NCBI GenBank assembly: GCA_025463875.1
Contig: JAODBI010000049.1
Location: forward strand, 1 to 56,682
DNA: 56,682 nucleotides
From: Actinomycetes bacterium
Lineage (GTDB): Bacteria > Actinomycetota > Acidimicrobiia > IMCC26256 > PALSA-610
Direction: 5' to 3'
Position numbers and translations under genes: made by a program. Below the pieces are notes generated by a model. The model did not search any database, was not told the origin of the DNA, and saw nothing but the letters and a program-made list of their open reading frames with translations. Positions within the stretch are counted from its first letter, which is position 1; every line of letters begins with the position of its first letter. This document shows positions 21,397 to 53,383 of this stretch, piece after piece.

Positions 21397-21400
21397 CGCG

Positions 21401-26166: not shown

Positions 26167-27276
26167 GTGACCGATTCATACGACGTGGTCGTCGTGGGAT
26201 GCGGTGGAGCGGGAGCGGCCACGACGTGGTGGTTGGCGCGCAACGGCTTCCGTGTCCTCGCGATCGACCGTTTCGACGCGCACCATACGCGCGGGTCGTC
26301 GCACGGCCGCGAGCGCATCGTCCGCCTCGCGTATGGCGACCCGGTCTACGTCGCGCTGGCGCAGGAATCGTTGCGCATGTGGCACGAGCTCGACGCGTCG
26401 GTCGACGCCACGCTCGTACGGACGGTGGGCGGCGTCGACACCGGATTTTCGGACGAGCTCGAGCAGGTGGCGCGCGGCTGCGACTGGGCCCGGGTGCCGT
26501 ACGAGTGGCTGGACCCCGACGCCGCCCGGCGAGCATTTCCCGGATTGCACTTCGATGGCCGCGCCCTCCTCCAGCGCGACGCGGGATGTGTCGACGCGCA
26601 TTTCGCGCTGGACGCGTTCGAGCAGTCGGCCGTGGCCGACGGCGCCGTGATCCACCGCTCGGAAACGGTGACCGGCATCTCCGAACAACCCGCGTCTGTG
26701 GCGGTGACGACCGACCGCGGGAGCTACCGCGGCGACTCGGTCGTGGTGACAACCGGCGCATGGGCCGCGGCGACGATCGACGGTCTCGCCCCGCTCCCCC
26801 CGATCACCGTCACCCGGGAGCAGGTGGCGTTCTTCCGCCCGCGGCGCGCCATGAGCTTCCCGACCTTCATCGACCGGCGGGCGACGAGCTACTACGGCCT
26901 TCCCACGCCGACCGGCTTGCTCAAGATCGGCGAGCACTACACCGGGCCCGTGGTCGATCCCGAGACCTACAGCGCCGACGTCGAACCGCGCACCTGGCGA
27001 CGGCTCCTCGATTGGGTGAGGCACAACGTGCCGGGTGTCGAACCCGAGCCGGTCGACCACAGCACCTGTCTGTACGCGTCCGGACCCGACGAAGATTTCG
27101 TCGTCGATCGGCAGGGACGCGTCACAGTCGGAGTCGGACTCGGTGGCCACGGGTTCAAGTTCCTCCCGATCCTCGGGCGCCGGCTCGCGGAGATCGCGAC
27201 CGGCACGCCTTGGACCGACAACCCGTTCCGATTCGAACGCGGGCCGCGCCTCGCCGCGCGTTCGTTGCACAAGTAG
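26167..27276 (+). CDS. SolA/monomeric sarcosine oxidase family FAD-dependent oxidase
   Basis: DVVVVGCGGAG, GSSHGRERIVRLAY, TCLY (covalent-flavin Cys), GHGFKF. Confidence 0.88.
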   Translation: MTDSYDVVVVGCGGAGAATTWWLARNGFRVLAIDRFDAHHTRGSSHGRERIVRLAYGDPVYVALAQESLRMWHELDASVDATLVRTVGGVDTGFSDELEQVARGCDWARVPYEWLDPDAARRAFPGLHFDGRALLQRDAGCVDAHFALDAFEQSAVADGAVIHRSETVTGISEQPASVAVTTDRGSYRGDSVVVTTGAWAAATIDGLAPLPPITVTREQVAFFRPRRAMSFPTFIDRRATSYYGLPTPTGLLKIGEHYTGPVVDPETYSADVEPRTWRRLLDWVRHNVPGVEPEPVDHSTCLYASGPDEDFVVDRQGRVTVGVGLGGHGFKFLPILGRRLAEIATGTPWTDNPFRFERGPRLAARSLHK

Positions 27277-36153: not shown

Positions 36154-36843
36154 GTGCCGGACGAGGAAGAGATCGACCTTGCCAGCCTTCCCGACGACCA
36201 GCTCGTCGCCCAGATGCACGACGATCTCTACGACGGCCTGGCCGACGAGATCGCCGAGGGCACGAACCTGCTCCTCGGCCGCGGTTGGTCGCCGGACGAC
36301 ACGCTGAACAAGGCGCTCGTCGAGGGCATGCGCATCGTCGGCATCGACTTCCGCGACGGCATCCTGTTCGTACCCGAGGTGCTCCTGGCCGCGAACGCGA
36401 TGAAGGCCGGTATGGCGATCCTGCGCCCACTGCTCGCGGAGACGGGCGTCGAGCCGATCGGGAAGGTCGACATAGGCACCGAAAAGGGCGACATCCACGA
36501 CATCGGCAAGAACCTCGTCGCGATGATGCTCGAGGGCGCGGGGTTCGAGGTGTTCGATCTCGGGATCAACACCGATGCCGACGAATTCCTGGCTGCCCTC
36601 GACGAACACAAGCCCGACATCCTCGGCATGTCGGCCCTGCTCACGACGACGATGCCGTACATGAAGGTCGTGATCCAGACCCTCATCTCGAAAGGGATTC
36701 GGGACGACTACATCGTCCTCGTCGGCGGCGCCCCGCTCAACGAGGAATTCGGCACGGCGATCGGCGCCGACGCGTACTGCCGCGACGCGGCGGTGGCGGC
36801 CGAGACCGCGAAGGCACTCGTGCGCGCCCATCGAGCCGCGTGA
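36154..36843 (+). CDS. Stand-alone cobalamin-binding (corrinoid) protein, cap plus B12-binding domains
   Basis: GM..VG.DFRDGILFVPEVLLAANAMK, GDIHDIGKNLV (DxHxxG), SALLTTTM, VGGAP. A -10 TACGCT 7 nt upstream suggests a leaderless start. Confidence 0.95.
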   Translation: MPDEEEIDLASLPDDQLVAQMHDDLYDGLADEIAEGTNLLLGRGWSPDDTLNKALVEGMRIVGIDFRDGILFVPEVLLAANAMKAGMAILRPLLAETGVEPIGKVDIGTEKGDIHDIGKNLVAMMLEGAGFEVFDLGINTDADEFLAALDEHKPDILGMSALLTTTMPYMKVVIQTLISKGIRDDYIVLVGGAPLNEEFGTAIGADAYCRDAAVAAETAKALVRAHRAA

Positions 36844-36845
36844 AC

Positions 36846-37484
36846 ATGGACGCCCGGCGCGAGCGCCCGCCACTCGTCCTCGCTTGCGGTGCGCTCGCCG
36901 GCGATCTCCGCGCGGTCCTCGCGGCCGACGGTCTCGCCGCGCACATCGACGTCGAGTACCTGCCCGCCAACCTGCACAACCGCCCCGACGCGATCGCGCC
37001 CGCCCTGCGCCCGCGCCTGCAGGCCGCGGTCGACGCGGGGCGCCCGGTCTTCGTCGCGTACGCCGACTGCGGTACCGGCGGCGCGCTCGACGCGCTGCTC
37101 GCGGAGTATCCCGGCACGCACCGCCTGCCCGGCGCGCACTGTTACGAGCTCTTCGCAGGCTCGCACGCGTTCGGCGCGTTGCACGAGGAGGAGCTCGGTA
37201 CCTTCTATCTCACCGACTTCCTCGCGAAACACTTCGACGCGCTCGTGTGGAGCGGGCTCGGTCTCGACCGCCACCCCGAGCTACGCGACACGTATTTCGG
37301 CAACTACCGGCGGGTGGTCCTGCTCTCGCAGGCTCTCGATCCCGAGCTGCTCGCGCAAGGTCGCGCGGCCGCCGATCGTCTCGGGCTCGCCTTCGTCCAC
37401 CGCAGCACCGGTCGCGACGGTCTCCGCGCGCCGGTGCTCGCCTTCGCCGCCGAACCCGAAGCTCGACATGCCGCGGCGCGGTAG
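36846..37484 (+). CDS. DUF1638 domain protein
   Basis: LACGAL, LPANLHNRP, YADCGTGG, HCY, GTFYLTDFL, LGLDRHPELRD.YFGNY. Confidence 0.88.
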   Translation: MDARRERPPLVLACGALAGDLRAVLAADGLAAHIDVEYLPANLHNRPDAIAPALRPRLQAAVDAGRPVFVAYADCGTGGALDALLAEYPGTHRLPGAHCYELFAGSHAFGALHEEELGTFYLTDFLAKHFDALVWSGLGLDRHPELRDTYFGNYRRVVLLSQALDPELLAQGRAAADRLGLAFVHRSTGRDGLRAPVLAFAAEPEARHAAAR

Positions 37485-37872
37485 CGGTCTCGTCGTCATC
37501 TTCTGGCGCGACATTCCTGCGCAGGTGAACGCGGGCTCGGGCGCGGAGAAGCATCAGGTGATCCTCCCGCGCCGCTTCCAGCGCGCCGTCGACGACGCGG
37601 CAATGGTCGCCGGCAAGAAGACCGCGAGCGAGTACGTCGGCGAGTGGCGACGCGTCGCGATCGCGGTCCCCGACGACGCCGGAGGGATGCAAGCCGCCGC
37701 GGAGCAGGAGGCGCACCGGCTGGACGACGCGTTCCCGCGCGAACGGCTGCAGCAGCTCGTGGCGAACGGCGGCCGCGACCCCGATGCACCCGATCCCGTG
37801 CCGGCGCCGGCGGCGGCGTCGGACGCGATCGGTGATCTGCCGACCTTCGATGTGAAGGAAGCGCGGCCGTGA
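37468..37872 (+). CDS. 'Virulence factor' (CvfA/B/C-like, PF13769-type) small domain protein
   Basis: IFWRDIPAQV, LPRRFQRAVDDAAM, Y..EWRR signature. Confidence 0.82.
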   Translation: MPRRGSGLVVIFWRDIPAQVNAGSGAEKHQVILPRRFQRAVDDAAMVAGKKTASEYVGEWRRVAIAVPDDAGGMQAAAEQEAHRLDDAFPRERLQQLVANGGRDPDAPDPVPAPAAASDAIGDLPTFDVKEARP

Positions 37873-39842
37873 GCGCGACGCGCCTCGTCGGAGAGCCGAC
37901 GATCGTGTTCACGCCGAGCGGCCGGCGGGGAACCGTCCCGGCGGGTACGACGGTGCTCGACGCCGCGCGCCGGCTCGGTGTCGATCTCGATTCGATCTGC
38001 AACGGACGGGCGTTATGCGGTCGTTGCATGGTCACGCCCGGATTCGGCGAGTTCCCCAAGCACGCGATCGTGAGCGACCCGGCAAGCCTCGACACGGCGA
38101 CCGGCGCGGAGCGCGCGTATCGCGGCCGTCGCCCACTCGAGCCGACGAGTCGCCTGGCGTGCTCGGCCCACGTCCTCGCCGACGTACTCGTCGACGTTCC
38201 CGCCGCGAGTCAGGTCCACCGGCCCGTCGTACGCAAGTCGGTCGCGCTCGACGATCTCGTCATCGATCCCGTCGTGCACCTCTACGTTGTCGACGTTCCG
38301 GCTCCCGATCTCGGCTCCGACCGCAGTGAGTTGCGCCGCCTCTACGACGCGCTCGCACTCGAATGGGGTCTCACCGATCTCGACATCCGATCCGCGATCC
38401 TCGCCACGCTCCAACCGGCGCTGGCTCACGGTGCGCGCACCGTCACGGTCGCGGTGCACGGCGGTCACTGGGTGTCGGCCGTGTGGCCGGGCTTCGTCGA
38501 CACTGCGTACGGAGTTGCGGTCGACGTCGGCTCGACGACTGTCGCCGGACACCTGTGCGATCTCACGACCGGCGAGGTGGTCTCGTCCGCCGGGATCATG
38601 AATCCGCAGATCCGTTTCGGCGAGGATCTGATGAGCCGCGTGTCGTACGTGATGATGCACCACGACGGCGCGGCCGAGCTCACCCACGCCATCCGCGCCG
38701 GGCTGCGCGACGTCGTCGACGAGCTCACCCTGACCGCCGGCGTCGAGCCCGATCGCGTCGTCGACCTCGTGCTCGTCGGGAACCCGATCATGCACCACCT
38801 CGTGCTCGGCATCGATCCCACACCGCTGGGCACCGCGCCGTTCACGCTCGCGACCGACGAGCCGGTCGATGCGTGGGCCGACGACATCGGGCTCGATCTC
38901 CCCAACGCACACCTGCACGTGCTGCCGTGTATCGCAGGCCATGTCGGCGCGGACACCGCGGCGGCGGTGCTGCAGGAGGGCCCGCACCGGGGCGACGCCG
39001 TCATGCTCCTCGTCGACGTCGGGACCAACGCCGAGATCGTGCTCGGCAACCGGGAATGGCTCTTCGCCGCGTCGAGCCCCACCGGGCCCGCCTTCGAAGG
39101 AGCGCAGCTCTCGTGCGGAGTGCGAGCGACGACCGGCGCGATCGAGCGGGTCCGGATCGACCGCGCCACGCTGGAGCCGCGCGTCAAGATCATCGGCGTC
39201 GACGCCTGGTCGGACGAGGACGGCTTCACAGAGCAGGTTGCGCAAGTCGACGTCACCGGCGTCTGCGGCAGCGGCATCATCGAAGCAATCGCCGAGCTGT
39301 TGCGCGCGGGTGTGATCCTGCGCGACGGCACGATCGACGGTTCCGCCGCCCCCCGATCATCCCGGGTGGTGGCCGACGACCGCACCTTTGCTTTCGTGCT
39401 GTACGAGGGAAGCACTCACGAGCTGCGGATCACGCAGAACGACGTCCGGGCGATTCAGCTCGCCAAGGCCGCTCTCAACGCCGGGATCCGCCTCTTGATG
39501 GATCACGCGACCATCACCGGGTTCGACGCGGTCCGGCTCGCGGGCGCGTTCGGGAGCCACATCGATCCCGCGTACGCGATCGCGATCGGACTGATCCCCG
39601 ACTGTGATCCCGCGATCGCAACGAACGTGGGCAACGCGGCGGGCGGCGGTGCGGTGCGCGCGCTCCTGTCGAACGCGGCGCGCGTCGAGATCGCCGAGGT
39701 CGCGCGCCGGATCGTGAAGATCGAGACCGCGACCGAGCCCGCGTTCCAGGCGCATTTCGTGCGCGCCATGGGCATCCCGGATTCCGACGAGACCGCGCCG
39801 CGCCGTACCCGCCGCGCGACCAGGGGGGTGCCCACACCGTGA
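37869..39842 (+). CDS. Reductive activator of corrinoid proteins (RACo/RamA-like; [2Fe-2S] plus ASKHA ATPase)
   Basis: CNGRALCGRC...RLAC ferredoxin, DVGSTT, NPQIRFGEDLMSRV, DVGTNAE, GPAFEG, GVCGSG, DVRAIQLAKAAL, LAGAFG, GNAAG. Confidence 0.93.
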   Translation: MSATRLVGEPTIVFTPSGRRGTVPAGTTVLDAARRLGVDLDSICNGRALCGRCMVTPGFGEFPKHAIVSDPASLDTATGAERAYRGRRPLEPTSRLACSAHVLADVLVDVPAASQVHRPVVRKSVALDDLVIDPVVHLYVVDVPAPDLGSDRSELRRLYDALALEWGLTDLDIRSAILATLQPALAHGARTVTVAVHGGHWVSAVWPGFVDTAYGVAVDVGSTTVAGHLCDLTTGEVVSSAGIMNPQIRFGEDLMSRVSYVMMHHDGAAELTHAIRAGLRDVVDELTLTAGVEPDRVVDLVLVGNPIMHHLVLGIDPTPLGTAPFTLATDEPVDAWADDIGLDLPNAHLHVLPCIAGHVGADTAAAVLQEGPHRGDAVMLLVDVGTNAEIVLGNREWLFAASSPTGPAFEGAQLSCGVRATTGAIERVRIDRATLEPRVKIIGVDAWSDEDGFTEQVAQVDVTGVCGSGIIEAIAELLRAGVILRDGTIDGSAAPRSSRVVADDRTFAFVLYEGSTHELRITQNDVRAIQLAKAALNAGIRLLMDHATITGFDAVRLAGAFGSHIDPAYAIAIGLIPDCDPAIATNVGNAAGGGAVRALLSNAARVEIAEVARRIVKIETATEPAFQAHFVRAMGIPDSDETAPRRTRRATRGVPTP

Positions 39843-41413
39843 GCGACGACGACATTCCCGCGGCGGCGACGGCCACCGGACCCGAGCCGCGGCGCGGTCG
39901 GACCGGCGGGCGCAGCGGGCGGCAAGCGGCCCGCCTGGCCACGCACATCGAAGCCGTACCGTTCCTGACGCGCACGCTGAAACCGCTCGACGTGGTGAGC
40001 GACGAGGGCCTCTCGATCATCGAGGAGAACGCCGACACGATCCTCGAAAGGGTCGGCGTCATCGTGCACGACTATCCCGACGCGCTCGCGCTCTATGCCG
40101 CCGCGGGCGCCGATGTCGACGGTGAGCGCGTGCGCTTCCCACGTGGGCTGTGCCGTTCCATCGTCCAGGCGACCGCACCCGCCATCTACACGCAGCACGC
40201 GCGCAACCGCGCGCACAACGTGCAGATCGGGGGCGACGCCACGGTGTTCGCGCCCAACTACGGCTCCCCCTTCGTGCACGATCTCGACGACGGCCGGCGT
40301 TACGCGACGCTCGCCGACTTCCAGAACTTCGTGAAGCTCACGTATCTGTCGCCCAACCTGCATCACTCCGGCGGGACGGTGTGCGAGCCCGTCGACATCC
40401 CCGTGAACAAGCGGCACCTCGACATGGTCTACGCGCATCTCCGCTACAGCGACAAGCCGTTCATGGGCTCGGTGACGGCCGCGGCACGCGCCGCGGACAG
40501 TGTGGAGATGGCCCGCATCGGCTTCGGTGGCGACCTCGAGGACCGCACCGCGATGACGAGCCTCATCAATGCGTCGTCGCCGCTCGTGTGGGACGCGACG
40601 ATGCTCGGCGCCGCGCACGTCTACGCGGCCGCCAACCAGGCCACCATCATCACGCCGTTCATCCTCGCCGGCGCGATGGCGCCGGTGACGACGGCCGGCG
40701 TCGCGGCGCAGACGTTGGCGGAAGCACTGGCCGGTATGGCGTTCGTGCAGCTGGTGCGACCCGGTGCGCCCGTCGTGTTCGGGTCGTTCGCGTCGTCGAT
40801 GTCGATGCAGACCGGTGCGCCGACGTTCGGTACCCCGGAACCGTCCCTCGTGCTGTACGTCGTCGGCCAGCTCGCGCGCCGTCTCGGCGTGCCCTTCCGA
40901 TCGGGCGGTTCGTTGTGCGCGTCGAAGCTGCCCGACGCCCAGGCTGCGTACGAGTCGGCCAACACACTGCAGGCCACGGTTCTCGGCGGCGTGAACTTCG
41001 TCCTGCACGCTGCGGGCTGGCTGGAAGGCGGCCTCGCGATCGGCTACGAGAAGTTCATCCTCGACGACGACCAACTGGGCATGATGGCGACGTTCGTACG
41101 CGGGGTCGACCTGTCCGAGAACGGCCAGGCGCTCGACGCCATTCTCGAGAACGGACCTGGGCAGCACTTCCTCGGGACGGCGCACACGCTCGCCAATTTC
41201 GAGAACGCCTTCTACCGGTCGACGACGGCCGACAACGCGAGCTACGAGCAGTGGCTCGAAGACGGGGGCCTCGACGCGTCGCAGCGCGCCAACGCGATCT
41301 GGAAGCGCCGGCTCGCCGAGTACGAACCGCCCGCGATCGATCCGGCCGTCGACGAGGCGCTGCGCGACTTCATCGCCCGGCGCAAGTCCGAGATGCCCGA
41401 CGAGATCGGCTGA
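39839..41413 (+). CDS. MttB-superfamily methyltransferase (non-pyrrolysine; MtgB-like)
   Basis: YGSPFV.D, GGTVCEP.D, NASSPLVWD, TPFILAGAMAPVT, PTFGTPE, SKLPDAQAAYES, HAAGWLEGGL, GPGQHFLG. No in-frame amber codon. Confidence 0.94.
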   Translation: MSDDDIPAAATATGPEPRRGRTGGRSGRQAARLATHIEAVPFLTRTLKPLDVVSDEGLSIIEENADTILERVGVIVHDYPDALALYAAAGADVDGERVRFPRGLCRSIVQATAPAIYTQHARNRAHNVQIGGDATVFAPNYGSPFVHDLDDGRRYATLADFQNFVKLTYLSPNLHHSGGTVCEPVDIPVNKRHLDMVYAHLRYSDKPFMGSVTAAARAADSVEMARIGFGGDLEDRTAMTSLINASSPLVWDATMLGAAHVYAAANQATIITPFILAGAMAPVTTAGVAAQTLAEALAGMAFVQLVRPGAPVVFGSFASSMSMQTGAPTFGTPEPSLVLYVVGQLARRLGVPFRSGGSLCASKLPDAQAAYESANTLQATVLGGVNFVLHAAGWLEGGLAIGYEKFILDDDQLGMMATFVRGVDLSENGQALDAILENGPGQHFLGTAHTLANFENAFYRSTTADNASYEQWLEDGGLDASQRANAIWKRRLAEYEPPAIDPAVDEALRDFIARRKSEMPDEIG

Positions 41414-41423
41414 GGGCTGAGGG

Positions 41424-42173
41424 ATGGCCGGAGGCACCGTGCAGTCTGTCGACCGGGCGTTCGCGGTGCTGCGCCAGGTCGCGAGCGAGCCGGGCGGCAT
41501 CAGCGAGGTCGCCCGCGCCGTCGACCTCCCGGTCAGCACGGTGGCGCGCCTGCTCGGCACCTTGGAATCGCTCGGCGCCGTGGTCCGCATCGGCGACTCG
41601 GGGACCTACGGAATCGGCTCCGGTATCCGCACCCTGGCCGAGGGTGTCAGCGCGTCGGAGACGCTCATCGCGCGCGCCCGGCCGCTGTTGACCGAGCTCG
41701 TGGGGCGCACGGGCGAGACGTCGGGCCTTTCGGTGCTCGACGGCGACGAGGTCGTGTACCTCGATCACGTCGAGAGCGAGAACGAGGTGACGCTGCGCGA
41801 CTGGACGGGTGCGCGCCTTCCATTGCACGTCGTGTCGTCCGGACTCGTCCTGCTCGCCGCACAACCGGCCTCGGTGGTCACCGCGTACCTCGCGCACCCG
41901 CCGGCGCGCTTCACGCGTCACACCATGACGCAACCAGCTCGCATCAAGCGCCGGCTCGCCACGATCCGGCGGGAAGGTCACGCGTGGACGATCGGCGAGT
42001 TCGACGAAGGCATCAGCTCCGTCGCCGCGCCCGTTGTCGACGCGCACGGCACCACGGTCGCGGCCATCCACTGCCACGGTCCGAGCTACCGCTTTCCCGG
42101 TCGCGCGACCGCCGACACGATCGCGTCGCGGGTCACCGCGATCGCGCGCGAGCTCGGTGCGCTGCTCCCATGA
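41424..42173 (+). CDS. IclR family transcriptional regulator
   Basis: VQSVDRAF..L, DLPVSTVARLL.TL, TGET, GARLPLH..SSG, SVAAPV. Confidence 0.93.
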   Translation: MAGGTVQSVDRAFAVLRQVASEPGGISEVARAVDLPVSTVARLLGTLESLGAVVRIGDSGTYGIGSGIRTLAEGVSASETLIARARPLLTELVGRTGETSGLSVLDGDEVVYLDHVESENEVTLRDWTGARLPLHVVSSGLVLLAAQPASVVTAYLAHPPARFTRHTMTQPARIKRRLATIRREGHAWTIGEFDEGISSVAAPVVDAHGTTVAAIHCHGPSYRFPGRATADTIASRVTAIARELGALLP

Positions 42174-42231
42174 GCGCACACATTCAGTCGTTAAGGTTCG
42201 GCCCGCCGCCCCTATCCCGAGGAGTGCAAGA

Positions 42232-44739
42232 GTGAGCGACCTCCCCACCGCCGCGCGAGTCGTGGTGATCGGGTCCGGCATCGTCGGCAACTCGGTGGTC
42301 GCGCACCTGGCCGAGCTCGGCTGGCGCGACATCGTGCAGTTCGACAAGGGGCCGCTCCCCAATCCCGGCGGCTCAACCGGTCACGCGTCGAACTTCATCT
42401 TTCCGGTCGATCACAACCGCGAGATGGCCGCGCTGACCCTCGACAGTCAACGGCAATACGCGGCGATGGGCGTCAACACCACGTGCGGCGGGATCGAGAT
42501 CGCGCGCAACCCGGAGCGCATGGAGGAGTTCCGGCGCCGGATGACGTCGGCCACGGCGTGGGGCGTCGACGCCGAGCTGCTGACGCCCGCCGAGGTCGCC
42601 AAGCTCGTCCCGTTCGTCAACACCGAGATCGTGCTCGGTGGCTTCTATACGCCGAGCGTCTCGGTCGTCGACTCGCTGCGCGCGGGGACGATCTTCCGCG
42701 AGCGGGCGATCGAGCTCGGTGCACTGAAGACGGTGGCCGCGGTGGAGGTGCTCGACATCGAGGTCGAGCAGGGACGCGTGCAGGCCGTCGTCACCGACCA
42801 GGGGCGCCTCGCGACCGAGTACGTGGTGGTCGCGTGCGGAGTGTGGAGCCCGCGCATCGCGGCGATGGCGGGCGCGACCATCCCGCTCACCCCGGCGGTG
42901 CACCAGATGATCGACGTCGGCCCGATCCCCGAGCTCGAGGCCACCGGCAACGAGATCGGCTTCCCGATCATCCGCGACATGGACACGTTCTGTTACGAAC
43001 GCCAGACCGGCGGCTCGATGGAGGTCGGCTCCTACGCGCACCGGCCGATCTTCCACCGCGCCGACGACATCCCGTCGATCAAGGAATCACGCCTCTCGCC
43101 CACCGAGCTGCCGTTCACCGCCGACGACTTCGACCAACAGCTCGAGGAGGCACTCGAGCTCATGCCCGACATTCTCTCGACGGCGGAGATGAAGTACGCG
43201 ATCAACGGACTCCTGTCGCTGACTCCCGACGGCTTCCCGCTCCTCGGCGAGACGGCCGAGGTGCAGAACCTCTGGTCGGCCGCCGCGGTCTGGATCAAGG
43301 AGGGTCCGGGAGTGGGTCGCATGATCGCGGAGTGGATGACGCACGGTGCGTCCGAGATCGACGCGCACCACTCCGACATCACACGCTTCTACCGGTACGC
43401 GCGCAACGATCATCACGTTCGCGCGCGCTGCGCCGAGCACTACAATAAGACGTACGGCATCGTGCACCCGCGTGAGCAGTGGGCATCGGAACGCAACATG
43501 CGCTGCGCGCCGTACCACGCGCGCACGCAGGCGCTCGGCGCGGTGTACTTCCAAGCCGGCGGGTGGGAACGCCCGCACTGGTACGAGAGCAACGCGGCGC
43601 TCGTCGAGCACTACGGCATCGAGGACCGCCCCCACGAGTGGGACGCCCGCTGGTGGTCGCCGATCATGAATGCCGAACACCTCGCGATGCGCGCGGGCGT
43701 CGGCATGATCGATCTCGCACCGTTCGTCGTCTTCGACATCAACGGCCCGGGCGCGCTCGACTACCTGCAGCACCTCACCGTGAACAACTGCAATGTCGCG
43801 GTCGGCCGTTCGATCTACACACCGTTGCTCGACCCCCGGGGCGGCTTCCGCACCGATCTCACGATCTTGCGGCTCGCCGACGACGCATTCCGGGTCGTCA
43901 CCGGTGCGTTCGACGGTCCGCGTGACGCGCACTGGTTCCGGTCGCACCTCCCGACCGGCGGCTCGGTCACCTTCGTCGACAACACCTCCGCGTACGCCAC
44001 GATCGGCGTGTGGGGACCGAAGGCGCGCGCGCTCGTGGAGTCGCTCACCTCCGACGACATCTCCGACGCCGCGCTCCCCTACGGCTCGACCGCCGAGGTG
44101 CTGATCGACTCCATCACGGTCCGCCTCTTCCGCATCTCCTACGTCGGCGAGCACGGCTGGGAGATCTACGTGCCGAGCGACAACGCGCTCGCGATCTGGG
44201 ACCGGTTGTGGGAAGCCGGACAGGCATTCGGCGTGACCGCGGTCGGTGCAGGGGTGTACGGAACGACGGGACGACTGGAGAAGGGCTATCGGCTCATGGG
44301 TGCCGAGCTCGACGGCGAGTACACGCCCGTGGAAGCCGGTCTTGCGCGGCCGAAGGTCAAGACCGCCGACTTCATCGGCAAGGACGGCTACCTCGCCGCG
44401 CGCGAGGCCGAGCCCGCGGCAGTGTTGTGCACGCTGACGGTCGAGAACCACATCTCACCCCGCGACGGGATCGCGCGCTTCATGTGCGGTTCCGAACCGA
44501 TCCTCACGCTCGACGGTGAGCGCATCGTCGACGCCAAGGGCCGGGTTTCGATCGTCACCTCGGCGGGCGCGGGCCCCTCCGTCGGCAAGTTCCTCCTGCT
44601 CGCGTATCTGCCCCCGGAGCACGCCGTCGTCGGTACCGACCTACTCGTGCGCTACATGAACGAGGACTACCCGGTGCGGGTCGCGGTGGCGGGGTCCCGA
44701 CCGTTGTTCGATCCCGACGACGCGCGCATGAAGGGCTGA
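42232..44739 (+). CDS. Dimethylglycine dehydrogenase/oxidase-like FAD- and folate-binding protein (GcvT C-terminal domain)
   Basis: VVIGSGIVG, GGSTGHAS, TPDGFPLLGE, GGWERPHWY, RISYVGEHGWE, RLEKGYR; AGGAG RBS before GTG. Confidence 0.92.
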   Translation: MSDLPTAARVVVIGSGIVGNSVVAHLAELGWRDIVQFDKGPLPNPGGSTGHASNFIFPVDHNREMAALTLDSQRQYAAMGVNTTCGGIEIARNPERMEEFRRRMTSATAWGVDAELLTPAEVAKLVPFVNTEIVLGGFYTPSVSVVDSLRAGTIFRERAIELGALKTVAAVEVLDIEVEQGRVQAVVTDQGRLATEYVVVACGVWSPRIAAMAGATIPLTPAVHQMIDVGPIPELEATGNEIGFPIIRDMDTFCYERQTGGSMEVGSYAHRPIFHRADDIPSIKESRLSPTELPFTADDFDQQLEEALELMPDILSTAEMKYAINGLLSLTPDGFPLLGETAEVQNLWSAAAVWIKEGPGVGRMIAEWMTHGASEIDAHHSDITRFYRYARNDHHVRARCAEHYNKTYGIVHPREQWASERNMRCAPYHARTQALGAVYFQAGGWERPHWYESNAALVEHYGIEDRPHEWDARWWSPIMNAEHLAMRAGVGMIDLAPFVVFDINGPGALDYLQHLTVNNCNVAVGRSIYTPLLDPRGGFRTDLTILRLADDAFRVVTGAFDGPRDAHWFRSHLPTGGSVTFVDNTSAYATIGVWGPKARALVESLTSDDISDAALPYGSTAEVLIDSITVRLFRISYVGEHGWEIYVPSDNALAIWDRLWEAGQAFGVTAVGAGVYGTTGRLEKGYRLMGAELDGEYTPVEAGLARPKVKTADFIGKDGYLAAREAEPAAVLCTLTVENHISPRDGIARFMCGSEPILTLDGERIVDAKGRVSIVTSAGAGPSVGKFLLLAYLPPEHAVVGTDLLVRYMNEDYPVRVAVAGSRPLFDPDDARMKG

Positions 44740-44747
44740 GCAGAGCA

Positions 44748-45536
44748 TTGAGCGGCTTGCGCATTCTCGTCTGCGTGAAGCGGGTCCCCGCGCCCGGCGC
44801 GCAGATCACACTGACTCCCGACGCCCGGGCCGTCGACGCGCGCAATCTGGCCTTCACGACGAGCCCCCACGAGGAGTGCGCGGTCGAAGCGGCCCTCCAG
44901 CTCGTCGAGGCGCACGGCGGCGATATCACCGTGCTTACCGTCGGGCCCCCCGAAGCCGAGGAGCAACTGCGGTTCTCCGTCTCGGTCGGCGTGCAGCACG
45001 CGGTCCTCCTCACCAACGACGAGCTGGCTGCGGGCGGGGATCTCGACCCGCAGGCGACGGCCCGCACGATCACCCGCGGCGTCCGCACGCTCGAAACCGA
45101 GGCCGCTCGGCCGTTCGACGTGCTCCTGTTCGGCAACGAGTCGGCCGACTCCGGCGGCTTCCAGGTCGGCGTGCGCGTGGCGCGGATGCTCGGCCTCCCG
45201 ATTGTCAACGGCATCAAGGGGATCGCCATCGCCGACGGCGTGCTCACCGCGCGGCGGGAGGGCGACGCCGGCTTCGAGGTGTATCGGATGCCGCTTCCGG
45301 CCGCGGTCGGCGTGAAGGAGGGCATCAACCTCCCGCGCTACCCCACCCTGCCGGGACGGCTTCGCTCGAAGAAGGCCGAAGTGCGCTCGTGGCCGTTCGT
45401 GACCGAGCCGGGCGGCCTCACGATGGTGCGCTTCGCCACGCCGACGGTCGAGCTCACCGAGACGGTGGTGCTCGGCGCGGGCGCGGGTGCGGCCGGCGCG
45501 GTCGTCGATCTTCTGGTCGAGCTGGGCATCGCATGA
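44748..45536 (+). CDS. etfB: Electron transfer flavoprotein beta subunit
   Basis: ILVCVKRVP, AVEAALQL, G.ESADS, NLPRYP. Confidence 0.92.
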   Translation: MSGLRILVCVKRVPAPGAQITLTPDARAVDARNLAFTTSPHEECAVEAALQLVEAHGGDITVLTVGPPEAEEQLRFSVSVGVQHAVLLTNDELAAGGDLDPQATARTITRGVRTLETEAARPFDVLLFGNESADSGGFQVGVRVARMLGLPIVNGIKGIAIADGVLTARREGDAGFEVYRMPLPAAVGVKEGINLPRYPTLPGRLRSKKAEVRSWPFVTEPGGLTMVRFATPTVELTETVVLGAGAGAAGAVVDLLVELGIA

Positions 45537-46504
45537 CCGGCGCGCCGCTCGTCCTGATCGACCACGACCGCGGGGTCGTCGGCGACGACACGCGCCAGGC
45601 GCTCGCATTCGCACGCGCCTGTTTCCCGGACCTTCCGATTGCGGCGGTCGTCATCGGCCGCGAACAGACCGAGCCGATCGCGGGCGCGGACACGACCTTT
45701 CATATCCGCCACACCGCGCTCGTCGACTACGCACCCGAAGCGTGGGGCGACGCGCTCCACGAGCTCGCAGTCGCGCAGTCGCCCGGTGCGATCGTCGCCA
45801 CCGGCACCGAACGCGGCAACGAGGTGCTCGCGCACGTCGCCGCGATCGCCGACCAGCCGTTCGCCTCCAACGTCATCGAGGCCGTGGCCGGAGCATCCGG
45901 AACGCCGTGGCAGATCCGGCGCCTGCGCTGGGGCGGAAGCCTGCTCGAGGACGCCACGCTCGACGCGACGCTGCCGATCATGAGCTGCGCGCTCCACGTC
46001 TTCCCGAACGAAATATCCGGTGGTCCGCCAAACGCCGACACGCCGGTCGTCGAGTTCGTCCCCACCCTCGGACCCGACGCCGGGCGCACGCGCATCGTCG
46101 ACCGGGTGCGGGTTGCGGAGGGGATCACGCTCACGACGGCTCCGGTCGTGGTGAGCGGCGGCCGGGGTGTCGGCTCCGAGGAGGGATTCGCCGCCATTGA
46201 AGCGCTCGCCGAGCTGCTAGGCGCGGCCGTCGGTTGCTCCCGGGTCGTCACCAACCAGGGATGGCGGCCGCACGCCGACCAGGTCGGCCAGACCGGCAAG
46301 CGGGTCGCGCCCGATCTTTACATTGCGTGCGGTATCTCCGGGGCAATACAACATTGGGTTGGGATGCAGGCGGCAAAGAACGTGCTGGCGATCAACACCG
46401 ATCCCGACGCGCCCATGGTCACCAAGGCCGACTACGCGGTCATCGGTGATCTGCACGAGATCGTTCCGGCGATCGTCGCCGAGATCCGCCGGCGGCGCAC
46501 GTGA
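45533..46504 (+). CDS. etfA: Electron transfer flavoprotein alpha subunit
   Basis: [38 protein letters not shown]. Confidence 0.94.
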
Positions 46505-47583
46505 CGACGAGCGGCACCGACACGACCACCGACGGGACGCCGCCGATCACCACGGCCGGCGCGGAAACGCCGACGATCTCGTGTCGAGGCGTATGGAAGG
46601 TGTTCGGACCCCACCCCGAACGCGTCGTCGGTTCGTCCGATGCCGAGCTCCCCCGCGCCGAGCTCGAGGCGCGCACCGGTTGCGTCGCGGCGGTGCGCGA
46701 CGTCAGCTTCGACGTCGACGCGGGCCGCGTGTTCGTCGTGATGGGTCTCTCGGGTTCGGGGAAGTCGACGCTCGTACGCTGCCTGAGCCGGCTCATCGAA
46801 CCCACCGCGGGCGATGTCCTGATCGACGGCGAGGACACCGCGCACTGTTCGGCACAGTGGCTGCGCGATCTGCGCCGCGACCGCGTGTCGATGGTCTTCC
46901 AGCACTTCGGCCTCCTCCCCCACCGGCGCGTGCTCGACAACGTCGCGTTTGGGCTCGAGGTACAAGGCAAGTCGAAGGCGGAGCGCCACGCGCGCGCCGG
47001 CGACATGCTCGACCTCGTCGGGCTCAGTGGGCTCGGCGACAGTTACCCCGACGAGCTCTCGGGCGGCATGCAGCAGCGGGTCGGGCTCGCCCGTGCCCTC
47101 GCGAACGATCCCGAGATCCTGCTCTTCGACGAACCGTTCTCCGCGCTCGACCCGCTCATCCGCCGCGACATGCAGGACGAGGTCGCTCGCCTCCAGCGCG
47201 AGCTCAAGAAGACCGTGGTGTTCATCACCCACGACCTCCAGGAGGCGCTCAAGCTCGGTGATGAGATCGCGATCATGCGCGACGGCCGCTTCGTCCAGGT
47301 CGGCACACCCGAAGGCGTCGTCGCGCATCCCGTCGACGACTACGTGCGCGACTTCGTACGCGACGTCCCGCGCGAGCACGTGCTGACGGCAGGCGGCATC
47401 ATGCGCGCACCGGTCGACAACGAGGAGACCGCAGGCACCGTCACGGAAACCACGTTGGTCAGCGACCTGCTCCCGATCGTCGTCGCGAGCGACCACCCGA
47501 TCGCCGTGCTCGACGGCGACGGCCGCGTGTGCGGCTCGGTCGACCGCCTGATCGTGCTGCGCGCGCTCGCGGAAGATGACTAG
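46501..47583 (+). CDS. Glycine betaine/choline ABC transporter ATP-binding subunit (ProV/OpuAA-like)
   Basis: [46 protein letters not shown]. Confidence 0.95.
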
Positions 47584-49597
47584 CCCTCGGTCGCTGCTCG
47601 TACGACTCGCGGTCCCGACCGCGGTGATCGCCGCATTCGCAGTGCTCCTCGCCGGGGTATGGGGCAATCCGATCGCGACGTGGTGGAACTTCCGGATCGG
47701 TCCGTGGATCGACAGCGTCGAGGAATGGATAATCCTGCACCGCGGCAACCATTGGCTGTTCCGCTGGGGCTTCGAGCCGATCGCACGATGGCTCCACAAC
47801 CTCGTGCAATGGGACCTCAACGCGCTGCACTTCATCACGTGGCCGGGGCTCATCACGCTGGTGGTCGTGGTCGCGGCACGCGTCTCGGGCATCCGGGCCG
47901 CGTTGACCGCGGGCGTTGCGGTGTTCGTGATCGGCGGGCTCGGCGTGTGGGAGCCCGCGATGGTCACCGTCGCGCTGATGCTGGTATCGGTCGCGATCGT
48001 CCTCGCGCTCGGTCTTCCGCTCGGAATCCTGAGCGCGCGGCGCCCGGCGTTCGAACGACGTACCCGCGTCGTCCTCGACGCGATGCAGGTGATGCCCGCG
48101 TTCTGCTACCTGCTCCCGTGCGTGCTCTTGTTCGACATCGGCTATCCCCCGGCCGTCGTCGCCACCGTGATCTTCGCACTGCCCGCCGCGATCCGGCTCA
48201 CCTCGCACGGACTCCGCGGTGTGCCCGACCGGCTGATGGAGGTCGGCACCGCGCACGGCGCAACTCCGCGCCAGTCGCTGTTGAAGATCCAGCTCCCGGT
48301 GGCGCGCCCCGCGTTGCTGCTCGGCATCAACCAGACCATCAACCTCGCGCTCGGCATCGTCGTCATCGCCGCGCTGGTCGGCGCCGAGGGCCTCGGCCAG
48401 GAGGTGCTCGCCGGTCTCCAACACCTCGACGTCGGTCAGGCCTTCGACGCGGGTCTCGCGATCGTGGCCGTCGCGATCGTGCTCGACCGCCTCACCGCGG
48501 GCCGGCCCCTGCGCGCCGCCCGCAAGTTTCGGCGCGACCGCACGCCGGAACGGGCGCGCATCGAGTTGCTCGCGGGCGTGGGAGCCGTCGTCATCGCGAT
48601 CATCGTCGGCAAGCTCTGGTCGTCGGGCGCGTTCCCGACCTCGATCGACTTCTCGTTGCACGATCCCGTCAACCGGCTCGTGGCGTGGTGCCGCGACAAT
48701 CTCCGTAACGGCGTACCGATCATCGGCGGCACCGGTTCGATCAGCGACTTCACGGTCATCCACCTTCTCGATCCGATCCGTGACTTCCTGACCCAGCGCA
48801 CATGGTGGGAGGTCATCTGCGGGGTGACCGCGTTGGCGTGGATCACCGCGGGTCGGCGGGTCGCCGCCGCGTGCGCGATCGCATTGCTCGTGGTGACCGG
48901 CCTGCACGCCGACGGCTCCGCGGGCGGCAGCATCTGGGTCGACACGATGGACACCCTGAGCCAGGTGCTCGTCGCGGTCGTGATCTCGATGGTCATCGCG
49001 CTGCCGATCGGCATCTGGGCCGGCATCAGCGAGCGCTTCTATGCGGCCATCCGACCACTGCTCGACGCCATGCAGGTCATGCCCGCGTTCGTCTACCTCG
49101 TCCCCGTGATCGGCCTCTTCAGCGTCGGGCGCGTGCCGGGCATCATCGCGTCGGTGGTCTACGCGCTGCCGCCGGGTATCCGCCTCACCGCGCTCGGCAT
49201 CCGCGAGGTGCCACCCGAGACGATCGAGGCTGCGCGTTCGAGCGGCGCGACCAAGTTCCAGATCCTCACCAAAGTGCAGCTGCCGCTCGCGTTGCGGTCG
49301 ATCATGCTCGGCCTCAACCAGACCATCCTCATGGTGCTCTCCGTGGTCGTCATCGCGGGGCTCGTCGGAGGCGGAGCACTGGGCGTCGATGTCGTCTACG
49401 GTCTCACCAAGAGCGAGCTCGGCCTCGGCGTCGAGGCGGGAATCGCGATCGTCGCGCTCGCCGTCGTGCTCGATCGAATGACCCAGGCGTGGGCGGCGGG
49501 CGTGCGGGGCGTCGCCGGAAGCACCAGACTGCGCACACCTCCCCGAGTTATTCGTGTCGGCAAGACCAAACTTCTCGATCAACTGGAGACAGCATGA
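47576..49597 (+). CDS. Betaine ABC permease with two fused ProW-like domains
   Basis: Duplicated [22 protein letters not shown] and K.QLP.A...G.NQTI motifs. Confidence 0.93.
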
Positions 49598-50595
49598 AAC
49601 GCAGCAGGCGGCTGATTCTCGGCACCGTCGTGCTCGCATTCGCGTTGAGCGCGTGCGGGAGCAGCTCGAAGCCCAGCTCGAGCGGCACGACCACAACCAC
49701 CGGCGGCGGTGGCGCCAAGAAGTTCAGCGGATCGATCACCCTCGCGGTCAACCCGTGGGACGGTTCTGCTGCCAACGCGGCCGTCGCGAAGGTCATCCTC
49801 GAAAAGCAGGGGATGACGGTGAAGACGAAGGACATCGACGAGAACGCGGTGTGGGCCGCGCTCGACTCGGGCACCATCGACGCGAACCTCGAAGTGTGGC
49901 CGTCGGGTCACGCCAAGGACATCGAGACCTACATCACCACGAAGAAGTCGGTGATCGACGGCGGCCTCATCGGCCCGACCGGTCACATCGGCTGGTTCAT
50001 CCCGAAGTTCGTGGCCGACGCGCATCCCGAGTACAAGACATGGGACGGCCTCAAGACGGCCGCGGCCGCGAAGTACTTCGCCACCGCCGAGACCGGCGAC
50101 AAGGGTCAGTTCCTGCTCGGCGATCCCAGCTATGTGAGCTACGACGCCGACATCATCAAGAATCTGAACCTGCCGTTCAAGGTCGTCACCGGCGGCGGCG
50201 AGGCCGCGCTCATCACCGGCATCGACACCGCGTTCAAGGACCAGAAGCCCCTGCTCTTCTACTTCTACACACCGCAGTGGGCGAACGCGAAGTACGACCT
50301 CGTCACCGTCAAGCTGCCCGACATCACGCCCGCGTGCACCGCATCGGCGGCCGGGCAGGGCAAGGACGGCAAGTACTCCTGCGACTACCCGACTGATCAC
50401 CTCATGAAGGCGATCAGTGCGAAGTTGCAGTCGAAGAACGCGAATGCGTTCTCGTTCCTCGAGAAGATGAAGTGGACCGACAACGACCAGAACACCGTCA
50501 CGAAGTACAAGAACGAGGACGGCATGACGATCGACGCGGCGGCCCAGAAGTGGGTCGACGCCAACCCGACGGTCTGGCAGGCGTGGCTCTCCTGA
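49594..50595 (+). CDS. Betaine/choline ABC substrate-binding lipoprotein (ProX/OpuAC-like)
   Basis: Lipobox LSAC, NPW, LEVWP, GWFIP, FYFYTPQW. Confidence 0.92.
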   Translation: MKRSRRLILGTVVLAFALSACGSSSKPSSSGTTTTTGGGGAKKFSGSITLAVNPWDGSAANAAVAKVILEKQGMTVKTKDIDENAVWAALDSGTIDANLEVWPSGHAKDIETYITTKKSVIDGGLIGPTGHIGWFIPKFVADAHPEYKTWDGLKTAAAAKYFATAETGDKGQFLLGDPSYVSYDADIIKNLNLPFKVVTGGGEAALITGIDTAFKDQKPLLFYFYTPQWANAKYDLVTVKLPDITPACTASAAGQGKDGKYSCDYPTDHLMKAISAKLQSKNANAFSFLEKMKWTDNDQNTVTKYKNEDGMTIDAAAQKWVDANPTVWQAWLS

Positions 50596-50618
50596 TCTGA
50601 CGCCTGATCTCCAGACAC

Positions 50619-52283
50619 TTGACACAAGCAGAAACGCAATACGACTTTATCATCGTCGGCGGCGGGTCCGCCGGTTGTGTGCTCGCGAATCGTCTCAGCG
50701 AGGATCCTTCGACGCGCGTGCTGGTCCTGGAAGCAGGCCGGCCCGACTACCGCTTCGACGTGTTCGTGCACATGCCGGCGGCCCTGTCGTTCCCGATCGG
50801 GAGTCGGTTCTACGACTGGAAGTACGAGTCCGAGCCCGAACCGTTCATGAACGGACGGCGCATCTACCACGCGCGCGGGAAGCTGCTCGGTGGTTCGAGC
50901 AGTATCAACGGGATGATCTTCCAGCGGGGCAACCCGCTCGACTACGAGCGCTGGGCCGCGGATCCCGGTATGGCCGAGTGGTCGTACGCACATTGCCTGC
51001 CGTACTTCAAGAAGATGGAGACGTGCCTGGCGGGCGCGGACGAGTTCCGCGGTGGGTCGGGACCTCTGGTACTCGAGCGCGGTCCCGCCACCAATCCCCT
51101 GTTCCAGGCGTTCTTCGGCGCAGTGCAACAGGCTGGGTACGAGCTCACCGACGACGTCAACGGTTACCGCCAAGAGGGCTTCGCCGCTTTCGACCGCAAC
51201 ATCCGGCGCGGGCGGCGCCTGAGCGCGGCGGGCGCGTACCTGCATCCGGTCATGCGCCGACCGAACCTCGACGTGAAGACCCGCGCGTTCACCACCCGGA
51301 TCCTGTTCGACGGCACGCTCGCGACCGGCGTCGAGTACACGACCCGGCGCGGTCAGGTCGAGCGGGTCACGGGCCGCGAGATCATCTGTTGCGGCGGCGC
51401 GTTCAACTCGCCGCAGCTGCTGCAGCTGTCGGGGGTCGGAAACGCGGCGGAGCTGAGCGCGCTCGGCGTCGACGTGGTGCACGATCTGCCCGGTGTCGGC
51501 GAGCACATGCAGGACCACCTCGAGGTGTACATCCAACATAAGGCGACGCAGCCCGTCTCGATGGCGCCGATGATCGCGAAGTGGCGCCGCCCGTGGATCG
51601 GGCTGCAATGGTTGATGCGCCGCGGACCGGGCACGACGAACCATTTCGAAGCGGGGGGTTTCGCGCGCAGCAACGACTCGCGCGTCTATCCCAACGTGAT
51701 GTTCCACTTCTTGCCGATCGCGATTCGCTACGACGGCTCGATGCCGCCCGGCGGGCTCGAGCACGGTTACCAAGTGCACGTCGGTCCGATGTACTCCAAC
51801 TCACGGGGTTCGTTGAAGATCACGTCGCGCGATCCCAAGGTGAAACCCGCGCTGCGGTTCAACTACCTGTCGACGCCCGAGGACGAGGTCGAGTGGGTCG
51901 AGACCGTGCACGCGGCGCGCAACATCCTCTCGCAGCCCGCATTCGGGCCGTTCAGCGGCGGCGAGATCTCACCCGGTCCGAGCGTCTCGAGCGACGACGA
52001 GATCCTCGAATGGGTGCGGCGGGACGCGGAGACCGCGCTGCATCCGTCGTGCACGTGCCGCATGGGCATCGAGGCCGATTCGGTACTCGATCCCGACACG
52101 ATGCGCGTGCACGGTGTCGACGGTCTGCGCGTCGTCGATGCCGCGTCGATGCGCTACATCACGAACGGCAACATCTACGCGCCGGTGATGATGCTCGCCG
52201 AGAAGGCGTCCGACCTCATCTTGGGGAATACGCCCCTCGCGCCCCAGCCCGTCGAGTTCTTCCGCCGCGACCTCGCCCGCTGA
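50619..52283 (+). CDS. betA: Choline dehydrogenase (GMC oxidoreductase)
   Basis: [71 protein letters not shown]. Confidence 0.95.
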
Positions 52284-52286
52284 CAA

Positions 52287-52369
52287 ACGCGCCCAAAACC
52301 CTGCCAACAGTGGGCAGGAAAACGTGCGCCACGCGCCGAAAACCCTGCCCACAGTTGGCAGTGAAAACG
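52287..52369. repeat. Two ~38-bp palindromic repeats at 44-bp period between convergent betA and bmt
   Basis: ACGCGCCCAAAACCCTGCCAACAGTGGGCAGGAAAACG and ACGCGCCGAAAACCCTGCCCACAGTTGGCAGTGAAAACG. Confidence 0.88.
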
Positions 52370-52372
52370 GCG

Positions 52373-53383
52373 TCAGCGGGCGCGGCGGCGTTCGCGGCTG
52401 CGGGCGCCTTGTGACTCCGCCGTTTCGGGCGCGGAGTTCGCGAGCGGACCGATGCGTTCGACGATCAGCTCGGGTGTCGGCGCCGCAGCCGCCGAGTGGG
52501 TGTCGAGCGCGACGCGCATCGCGCGGAGATGCTCGGGCGACGTGCCGCAGCAACCACCGACGATCGCCGCGCCCCCGTCGACCGCGAGCCGCGCGTACTC
52601 GGCCATGAGATCCGGCGTGCCGGAATAGACGATCTCGGCGCCGTGGAACTGCGGGATGCCGCAGTTGCCCTTCGAGATGAGTCGATGGGCGCCGTTCGCG
52701 CCGGCCATCTCCAGCAGCGTGACGAGGATGTCGGACGCGCCGACGCCGCAGTTCGCTCCGATCGCCAACGGGGGTCGATCGAGACCGTCGAACGCGGAGC
52801 CGAAAGCCGCGGGGTGGAGTCCCATCATCGTGCGGCCGGCGGTGTCGAACGAACCGGTCGCCGCGTACGGAATCCCGACCGCGATCGCGGCGCGCGCCGC
52901 GGCGCGCAGCTCCTCGGACGCGGACATCGTCTCGATCCATGCGACGTCGGCGCCGCCCGCCGCCAGGCCGGTGATCTGTTCGGTGAACACCTCGAGCGCG
53001 TCATCGTCGGTGAGGGCGCCGAGCGGAGCGAACAACTCCCCCGTCGGCCCCACCGAGCCCGCGACCACAACCGGCCTCGGCGCCGCGTCGGCAACCTCGC
53101 GGGCCAGCTCGGCCGCCCGCCGGTTGAGCTCGAGTACCCGGCCTTCGTTGTGGTGCAGCTTCAAACGGTGCCGATTACCGCCGAACGTGTTCGTCAGGAT
53201 GAGGTCGGATCCGGCGTCGACGAACGCCTGGTGCAGCGCCTTCACGCGGTCAGGATGGTCGACGTTCCACAGCTCGGGCGGCTCGCCGGCCTCGAGCCCC
53301 ATCCGGAAGTAGTTCGTGCCCGTGGCGCCGTCCGCGAGCAGCACCCGACGAGTCGCGAGAAGGGCTTCGAGGGAGGTGCGCAC
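52373..53383 (-). CDS. bmt: Stand-alone homocysteine S-methyltransferase domain (Bmt-like, split methionine synthase module)
   Basis: LADGATGTN, PELWN, ILTNTFG, AGSVGPTG, IETMS, GANCGVG, KGNCGIP, VGGCCGT (Zn-binding Cys), Arg-rich C-terminus. Start placed at GTG 8 nt after a -10 TAGCCT. Confidence 0.9.
   Translation of the reverse strand: MRTSLEALLATRRVLLADGATGTNYFRMGLEAGEPPELWNVDHPDRVKALHQAFVDAGSDLILTNTFGGNRHRLKLHHNEGRVLELNRRAAELAREVADAAPRPVVVAGSVGPTGELFAPLGALTDDDALEVFTEQITGLAAGGADVAWIETMSASEELRAAARAAIAVGIPYAATGSFDTAGRTMMGLHPAAFGSAFDGLDRPPLAIGANCGVGASDILVTLLEMAGANGAHRLISKGNCGIPQFHGAEIVYSGTPDLMAEYARLAVDGGAAIVGGCCGTSPEHLRAMRVALDTHSAAAAPTPELIVERIGPLANSAPETAESQGARSRERRRAR

Follow-up and report, generated by a model that had tools for sequence, protein, structure and literature searches.

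A cobalamin-dependent betaine demethylase and split methionine synthase predicted in an MtgD-less choline operon of Acidimicrobiia

The removal of the first methyl group of glycine betaine in aerobes was resolved only in 2025, and only in marine Proteobacteria. In aerobic Ruegeria pomeroyi, MtgB (pfam06253), MtgC, the pterin-binding MtgD and the homocysteine module MtgE are described as forming a betaine demethylase combined with a split methionine synthase, and genetic evidence from 2025 shows that both betaine use and methionine synthesis need mtgC and mtgD (PMC12478193). According to the same report, a RamA-like protein and a DUF1638 protein assist the system, the genes are co-located in Sinorhizobium meliloti, MtgE is equated with the S. 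meliloti protein called Bmt or 'Bhmt', and Actinomycetota account for 5% of the marine mtgC reads. Two other systems are close enough for comparison, namely MtgABC of Desulfitobacterium hafniense, in which Y97, R312, H348 and F356 of MtgB are given as the betaine-binding residues (PMC13080624), and the tripartite methionine synthase from Phaeobacter inhibens, a split MetH reported to need DUF1638 (PMC5764234). Here we describe a related island in the window, by which we mean the whole 56,682-nucleotide stretch of Actinomycetes bacterium DNA analysed. The island consists of 13 co-oriented genes running from mtgC to betA (36154-52283, plus strand) and a convergent gene for a homocysteine methyltransferase. 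The assembly to which it belongs, as contig C73, comprises 4.6 Mb in 403 contigs and has a completeness of 88.5%.

The explanation that best accounts for the island, to which we assign a probability of roughly 60%, is that it represents an Acidimicrobiia ortholog of the aerobic cobalamin-dependent betaine demethylase/split methionine synthase, set in a choline-to-sarcosine operon and derived in that it lacks MtgD, with the methyl group predicted to pass to homocysteine. A system of this kind is already known; the MtgD-less, MetH-retaining operon with dimethylglycine dehydrogenase (DMGDH) and electron transfer flavoprotein (ETF) genes, a transporter and BetA is a new form of it. The relationship to the S. 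meliloti locus is close: the window proteins are 73% (MtgC), 65% (Bmt, against the gene annotated bmt), 63% (MttB), 51% (RACo), 48% (DUF1638) and 40% (PF13769) identical to their counterparts there. MtgB, MtgC, MtgE, the RamA/RACo activator and DUF1638 are thus common to the window and to the MtgBCDE systems of Alphaproteobacteria, PF13769 is found in the S. meliloti locus as well, and both hosts are aerobic. By contrast, the window's lineage has neither MtgD nor a MetF2-like methylenetetrahydrofolate reductase (MTHFR), and its core genes share one tight operon with DMGDH-EtfBA, an ABC importer and BetA.

The absence of MtgD was traced in a survey of public genomes, in which 569 relatives were confirmed among 600 matched stretches and the best 80 MttB loci were examined. 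The closest public relatives of the locus are metagenome-assembled genomes labelled Acidimicrobiia, Ilumatobacteraceae and similar, and the locus is also present in soil metagenome runs. Many of the surveyed loci are incomplete, so that counts among the 80 are lower bounds: RACo is present in at least 68, PF13769 in at least 57, MtgC and DUF1638 in at least 55 each, the IclR gene in at least 31, and DMGDH-EtfBA near mttB in at least 24. The order mtgC-DUF1638-PF13769-RACo-mttB recurs widely in independent assemblies. Of the 55 loci in which MtgC and MttB occur together, 49 have an additional gene, mtgD, inserted between PF13769 and RACo; it measures about 300 codons, and in the three examples examined it encodes a pterin-binding protein (PF00809, 93-103 bits). 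The gene is missing at this position from the window and from loci L016 (with an MttB 90% identical to that of the window), L035, L049, L052 and L057, whereas L092 is irregular. The same six loci also lack a member of one cluster of open reading frames (ORFs), typically of about 290-330 codons, which is found in 34 of the 80 loci, mostly immediately after mttB, and three members of which are MTHFR-like with weak PF02219 matches (25.5-31.8 bits). By analogy with the proposed MetF2 of Ruegeria, this divergent protein of MtgD-bearing relatives (L017-L095) may oxidise methyl-tetrahydrofolate (methyl-THF); genes for FolD or formate-THF ligase lie near some of the loci that carry it.

The lack of mtgD at the window locus is not an assembly error, because contigs of four soil metagenome runs bridge the PF13769/RACo junction and three other genomes (G051, G047 and G087) show the same form. 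No significant remnants of mtgD or of the MTHFR-like gene were found in the window. Elsewhere in the 88.5%-complete assembly, the PF00809 matches comprise two genes only, both of which were considered as MtgD and rejected as dihydropteroate synthases (DHPS), and a tblastn search with the MtgD of a relative returned one weak match (E 3e-4) on contig C245, inside a frame scored as DHPS. Across the class, MttB was detected in 21 of 101 sampled genomes, and 20 MttB-positive and 20 MttB-negative genomes were scanned with MetH models. All 17 MttB-positive genomes of families f13, f18, f22 and f28 encode a stand-alone pterin module and 15 of them lack full MetH, whereas the eight relatives of the MtgD-less form (three from the window's order and five more) all encode MetH at full length but no stand-alone pterin module, so that this module is absent from all nine MtgD-less genomes examined when that of the window is included. 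MetH is also present in 18 of the 20 MttB-negative genomes. The MtgD-less form occurs in at least nine genomes, with MttB proteins 77-90% identical to one another. In a quick MttB tree, rooted at the midpoint for drawing only, the MtgD-less rows fall into separate supported groups among MtgD-bearing rows, which implies at least two label changes (a provisional figure), and the Chloroflexota and proteobacterial rows carry MtgD. Provisionally, mtgD would have been lost more than once, assuming that the MtgD-bearing state is ancestral.

Because neither MtgD nor the MTHFR-like protein is present, the first methyl group has no visible route to tetrahydrofolate; in the absence of MtgD, therefore, MtgE/Bmt is the only visible methyl acceptor protein apart from MetH. 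The route that we favour would run from betaine via MtgB, MtgC and MtgE to methionine. The same chain had been put forward in the preliminary description; judged on sequence alone, it is the best fit to the gene content, the MetH-like character of Bmt and the lack of MtgD in the lineage. Bmt has the invariant zinc-site cysteines C212, C278 and C279, and among PDB structures it is closest in type to the homocysteine module of MetH (1q7m, 156 bits), with 58.6-65.8 bits to betaine-homocysteine methyltransferase (BHMT) chains; it is thus not closer to BHMT than to MetH modules. A stand-alone homocysteine module (E < 1e-25) accompanies MttB in 19 of the 20 MttB-positive genomes and is found in none of the 20 MttB-negative ones, and in five of the nine MtgD-less genomes, including that of the window, bmt lies within about 15 kb of mtgC.

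The most serious alternative is that Bmt is a direct, cobalamin-independent betaine-homocysteine methyltransferase, in which case the methyl group from MtgB-MtgC would go to an unrecognised methyltransferase, to MetH in trans or to the product of an mtgD in unassembled DNA. We consider this unlikely, although it is not without support. The NCBIfam name of Bmt is betaine--homocysteine S-methyltransferase, MtgE is stated to be able to act in this manner (bioRxiv 10.64898/2025.12.19.695462), the assembly of the window's genome is only 88.5% complete, and a gene placed outside the operon is predicted not to be co-transcribed with it. Besides the much better match of Bmt to the MetH module, however, proteins of the S. 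meliloti type are described as lacking the betaine-binding residues of human BHMT (PMC12478193), and an mtgD hidden in unassembled DNA sits poorly with the absence of a stand-alone pterin module from all eight relatives. No other methyltransferase candidates were found beside the MtgD-less loci, and a direct BHMT would leave an intact and conserved set of MtgB, MtgC and RACo with no acceptor.

Whether Bmt is the only methionine synthase of the organism is a separate question. In the window's genome, matches to the MetH model TIGR02082 are confined to MtgC and Bmt, as separate proteins, and to the B12 domains of mutases; a classical one-polypeptide MetH was thus not recovered, and the 88.5%-complete assembly yielded no MetE either. 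Nevertheless, synteny with the metH region of a genome of the same family (L096) stops at the end of the 3979-bp contig C359, 2.7 kb before metH (G000, contigs C21 and C359). Because of this break and the presence of MetH in all eight MtgD-less relatives, the missing MetH is probably an assembly gap, and the idea of Bmt as the sole methionine synthase was dropped. Within the metH flank of the relative, a stretch of about 330 bp (L096, 15950-16280) has 67-72% identity to many contigs of the window's genome and represents either a repeated domain or an element present in multiple copies.

Turning to the methyl donor, the window MttB is encoded by an open frame without an in-frame stop, and its PDB matches place it with the non-pyrrolysine proteins: 705.6 bits to 4yyc, 427 bits to D. 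hafniense MtgB (2qne/9yce) and 96.8 bits to the pyrrolysine-type MttB 7xcl. The best of these, 4yyc, is the very MttB encoded in the S. meliloti locus, the two scoring 1189.9 bits against each other. With the MtgB residues located in the 9yce chain at indices 95, 310, 346 and 354 (Y, R, H and F, an offset of 2 from the numbering of PMC13080624), Y141, R354 and H390 of the window protein align with Y97, R312 and H348, so that three of the four described betaine-binding residues are kept. The fourth, F356, corresponds to G398, with W394 nearby, and 4yyc has the same pattern; with this substitution, betaine is a probable rather than a proven substrate. The alignment with D. hafniense MtgB begins at residue 47-50 of the window protein. 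An Arg/Gly-rich N-terminal extension of about 45 residues (39839-39980), which is common to 4yyc, is absent from the D. hafniense protein.

The altered position lends some support to a second alternative, that MttB demethylates another quaternary amine such as proline betaine, carnitine or gamma-butyrobetaine. Several substrates are also hinted at by genomes of relatives, which encode up to five MttB paralogs, and a similar suggestion has been made for paralogs by others (PMC12478193). We regard this alternative as improbable for the window. Its genome encodes a single MttB, the carboxylate-binding Arg and His plus one aromatic residue are kept, and the S. meliloti ortholog has the same Gly. 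Furthermore, the neighbours of mttB in the island are a DMGDH-family gene, EtfBA, a choline/betaine ABC importer and BetA; together with the single MttB, this context supports betaine as the substrate, and betaine specificity is likely as far as residues and neighbours can indicate.

A third possibility, that the module is a decaying, functionless relic left by the loss of mtgD, can largely be set aside: the loss of mtgD and the MTHFR-like gene does remove the catabolic outlet known from Proteobacteria, yet all five core genes have unbroken reading frames whose starts and stops overlap, and the MtgD-less form persists in several genomes and tree groups, with MttB conserved at 77-90% identity.

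Several further points weigh against a transfer from MtgC to MtgE in the island. Upon growth with betaine, MtgE falls and MtgBCD rise in R. pomeroyi and P. inhibens, where catabolic flow is reported to pass through MtgD rather than MtgE (PMC12478193; bioRxiv 10.64898/2025.12.19.695462). One-to-one coupling to homocysteine would limit catabolic flux without a methyl sink, and none was identified. The bmt gene is convergent and lies outside the operon; in three of the nine MtgD-less genomes it is on another contig, and for one (G101) the search gave no match at E <= 1e-15. The absences noted for the window's own genome are weak when taken alone, given its completeness. Finally, no RNA runs were listed for the locus, and the contigs of the four runs examined were all DNA.

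For the window MtgC, the top NCBIfam match, which at 197.5 bits stays under the cut-off of 370, is to the MtgC model for glycine-betaine corrinoid proteins, and its DxHxxG (His-on) motif, D113/H115/G118, is invariant in 35 sequences. RACo has an AcsV-like NCBIfam match of 340.4 bits, likewise under the cut-off. In DUF1638, H44, C75, H98 and C99 are invariant and C14 nearly so among 37 sequences, a Cys/His pattern that suggests a metal or cluster site. The survey marks the PF13769 gene as a conserved member of the corrinoid module; its S. meliloti ortholog (L100, 7114-7416) is annotated 'virulence factor' and stands beside the MTHFR genes. The Pfam name 'Virulence_fact' is probably misleading. 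Profile searches against PDB sequences gave no relatives of DUF1638 or PF13769 below E 0.5, and the protein atlas contained for PF13769 only small clusters of the family, with no functional lead.

The layout of 13 co-oriented, abutting genes with a convergent bmt is as the preliminary description had claimed, and the gene identities that it named were confirmed by Pfam and NCBIfam, with two reading frames corrected (Table 1). The mechanically generated ORF list masks DUF1638 within a 486-aa ORF and PF13769 within a 327-aa ORF; the true frames were set by third-position GC per frame, start codons and Pfam. With starts refined in this way, the 12 junctions among the 13 genes comprise overlaps of 4-17 nt in seven cases and gaps of 2-58 nt in five, figures that rest on our own choice of start codons. 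The stops of betA and bmt are separated by 89 nt. In a promoter and terminator scan, promoter-like sites numbered 0 and terminator-like sites 4, where 5.3 were expected. None of the Rfam families reached its gathering score within the window, so that a cobalamin riboswitch was not seen. The leader (36160 back to 35560) contains no inverted repeats, and those in 41400-42240 are mostly inside the IclR coding sequence. Directly beyond bmt, a PAS-PAS-GGDEF diguanylate cyclase is encoded at 53652-55238; a GGDEF homolog is also found near the locus in L052.

Table 1. Genes of the island in the window, with the matches on which their assignment is based
Product	Position	Strand	Evidence
MtgC-type corrinoid (cobalamin-binding) protein, 229 aa	36154..36843	+	PF02310 95.2 bits and PF02607 59.4 bits (B12-binding and cap)
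DUF1638 protein, 212 aa	36846..37484 (alternative GTG start 36840)	+	PF07796 77.6 bits
Small PF13769 ('Virulence_fact') protein, 134 aa	37468..37872	+	PF13769 70 bits
RACo/RamA-like reductive activator, 657 aa	37869..39842	+	RACo_C_ter 277.2, Raco_middle 157.6, RACo_linker 61.8, Fer2 26.1 bits
MtgB-type non-pyrrolysine MttB-superfamily methyltransferase, 524 aa	39839..41413	+	PF06253 739.7 bits
IclR-family regulator, 249 aa	41424..42173	+	HTH_IclR and IclR_C
Dimethylglycine dehydrogenase/oxidase-family flavoenzyme with folate-binding GcvT domain, 835 aa	42232..44739	+	DAO, FAO_M, GCV_T and GCV_T_C
EtfB, electron transfer flavoprotein beta subunit	44748..45536	+	PF01012; EtfB-type NCBIfam matches below cut-offs
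EtfA, electron transfer flavoprotein alpha subunit	45533..46504	+	ETF_alpha and ETF; ATG 45533 overlaps EtfB stop
ProV/ChoV-type ABC ATPase	46501..47583	+	TIGR01186 proV 358.8 bits (cut-off 326.6)
Fused double permease of choline/betaine ABC transporter, 673 aa	47576..49597	+	TIGR03416 462.8 bits (cut-off 363), two stretches
OpuAC-family substrate-binding lipoprotein	49594..50595	+	PF04069 131.4 bits; ATG 49594
Choline dehydrogenase BetA	50619..52283	+	TIGR01810 800.6 bits (cut-off 732.1)
MtgE/'Bmt' stand-alone homocysteine S-methyltransferase, 336 aa, GTG 53383	52373..53383	-	PF02574 207.1 bits; NF005718 521.9 bits (cut-off 338)

The distal half of the operon concerns uptake and oxidation. 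The permease combines two ProW/ChoW-type domains in one protein, and by our own reading a Cys following the hydrophobic N-terminus of the OpuAC protein would be a lipobox. The DMGDH-like protein has a full-length match to the dimethylglycine oxidase of Arthrobacter globiformis (1pj5, 517.1 bits) and about 306 bits to mammalian DMGDH; unlike the case of the oxidase, the adjacent EtfBA suggest an ETF-using dehydrogenase. Contrary to the preliminary description, the island is not self-contained: no aldehyde dehydrogenase in the 88.5%-complete genome exceeds the BetB cut-off (best 540.9 versus 668.6 bits), the corrin-synthesis marker CbiC was not found in that genome, no sarcosine-step enzyme lies within the island, and homocysteine would have to be regenerated elsewhere. 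Nine kilobases upstream, at 26125-27276, there is a flavoenzyme resembling monomeric sarcosine oxidase/N-methyltryptophan oxidase (NF008425 248.3 bits, just under the cut-off of 257), which could take sarcosine to glycine; it is followed by a hemerythrin-domain gene and an SGL-family gene. Anaerobe-type corrinoid chemistry beside O2-dependent dioxygenases had been pointed out in the preliminary description. PhyH- and TauD-family enzymes are indeed present in the window, but the combination is no longer new, since such chemistry has been shown in aerobic R. pomeroyi and mapped in S. meliloti (PMC12478193). The TauD-family dioxygenase at 20365-21564 (minus strand) is weakly similar to the dioxygenases that act on trimethylaminoethylphosphonate, gamma-butyrobetaine and trimethyllysine and may be another quaternary-amine enzyme.

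Taken together, the genes suggest the following scheme. A ChoXWV/ProU-type ABC importer would bring in choline or betaine, and BetA would carry choline towards betaine. Betaine would methylate Co(I)-MtgC via MtgB, with release of dimethylglycine, and the methyl group of methyl-Co(III)-MtgC would pass to homocysteine via MtgE/Bmt, yielding methionine. Co(II) formed under air would be re-reduced by RACo, with ATP and its 2Fe-2S cluster, assisted by DUF1638 and perhaps PF13769. The DMGDH-family enzyme would convert dimethylglycine to sarcosine, with the C1 unit going to folate and the electrons to EtfAB, and IclR would act as regulator. The outcome would be a three-piece B12-dependent betaine-homocysteine methyltransferase operating beside classical MetH. 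In mammalian choline oxidation (CHDH, BHMT, DMGDH, ETF), choline is converted to betaine, a betaine methyl group is transferred to homocysteine, and a flavoenzyme that binds folate oxidises dimethylglycine, with ETF as the electron acceptor. The chemical logic of the island is the same, but its betaine-homocysteine step would depend on B12 and on three proteins rather than one zinc enzyme.

Set beside D. hafniense MtgABC, the island has in common the MtgB homolog, the corrinoid protein that partners it and an activator of the RamA type, but it lacks an MtgA-type methylcobalamin:THF methyltransferase, its MtgB has the N-terminal extension and Gly in place of F356, its host is an aerobe, and homocysteine is proposed as the acceptor. 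With the P. inhibens methionine synthase, it shares stand-alone B12-binding and homocysteine modules and the RamA-like and DUF1638 helpers, which were identified there by mutant fitness, whereas the methyl-donor module is MttB, with betaine as its predicted substrate, and not a pterin-binding methyl-THF module (PMC5764234). As the preliminary description had supposed, no characterised actinobacterial or acidimicrobial example was found in the literature searched; the available part of PMC12478193 contributes only the marine mtgC reads mentioned above.

Betaine and choline rank among the major osmolytes and also serve as nutrients rich in nitrogen. The locus extends the B12-dependent betaine route to abundant soil and freshwater actinobacteria, and it predicts that betaine use requires B12 in organisms possibly unable to make the vitamin. 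With the MtgD-less form, nature provides a clean test of whether methyl transfer from corrinoid to homocysteine can be direct, and of whether bacterial Bmt is a B12-dependent module or a true BHMT. We further propose, as a conjecture with an even chance of being right, that the MtgD-less islands are minimal systems of natural origin, whose MtgB, MtgC and MtgE alone would function as a B12-dependent betaine-homocysteine methyltransferase, having arisen more than once by mtgD loss in MetH-keeping Acidimicrobiia. If so, a corrinoid-bound betaine methyl group would pass directly to homocysteine, which would settle the dispute over bacterial 'Bmt'; PF13769 and DUF1638, with its Cys and His residues, would be indispensable helpers when Co(I) chemistry is run in air, and the Acidimicrobiia of soil and freshwater would be B12-dependent consumers of betaine.

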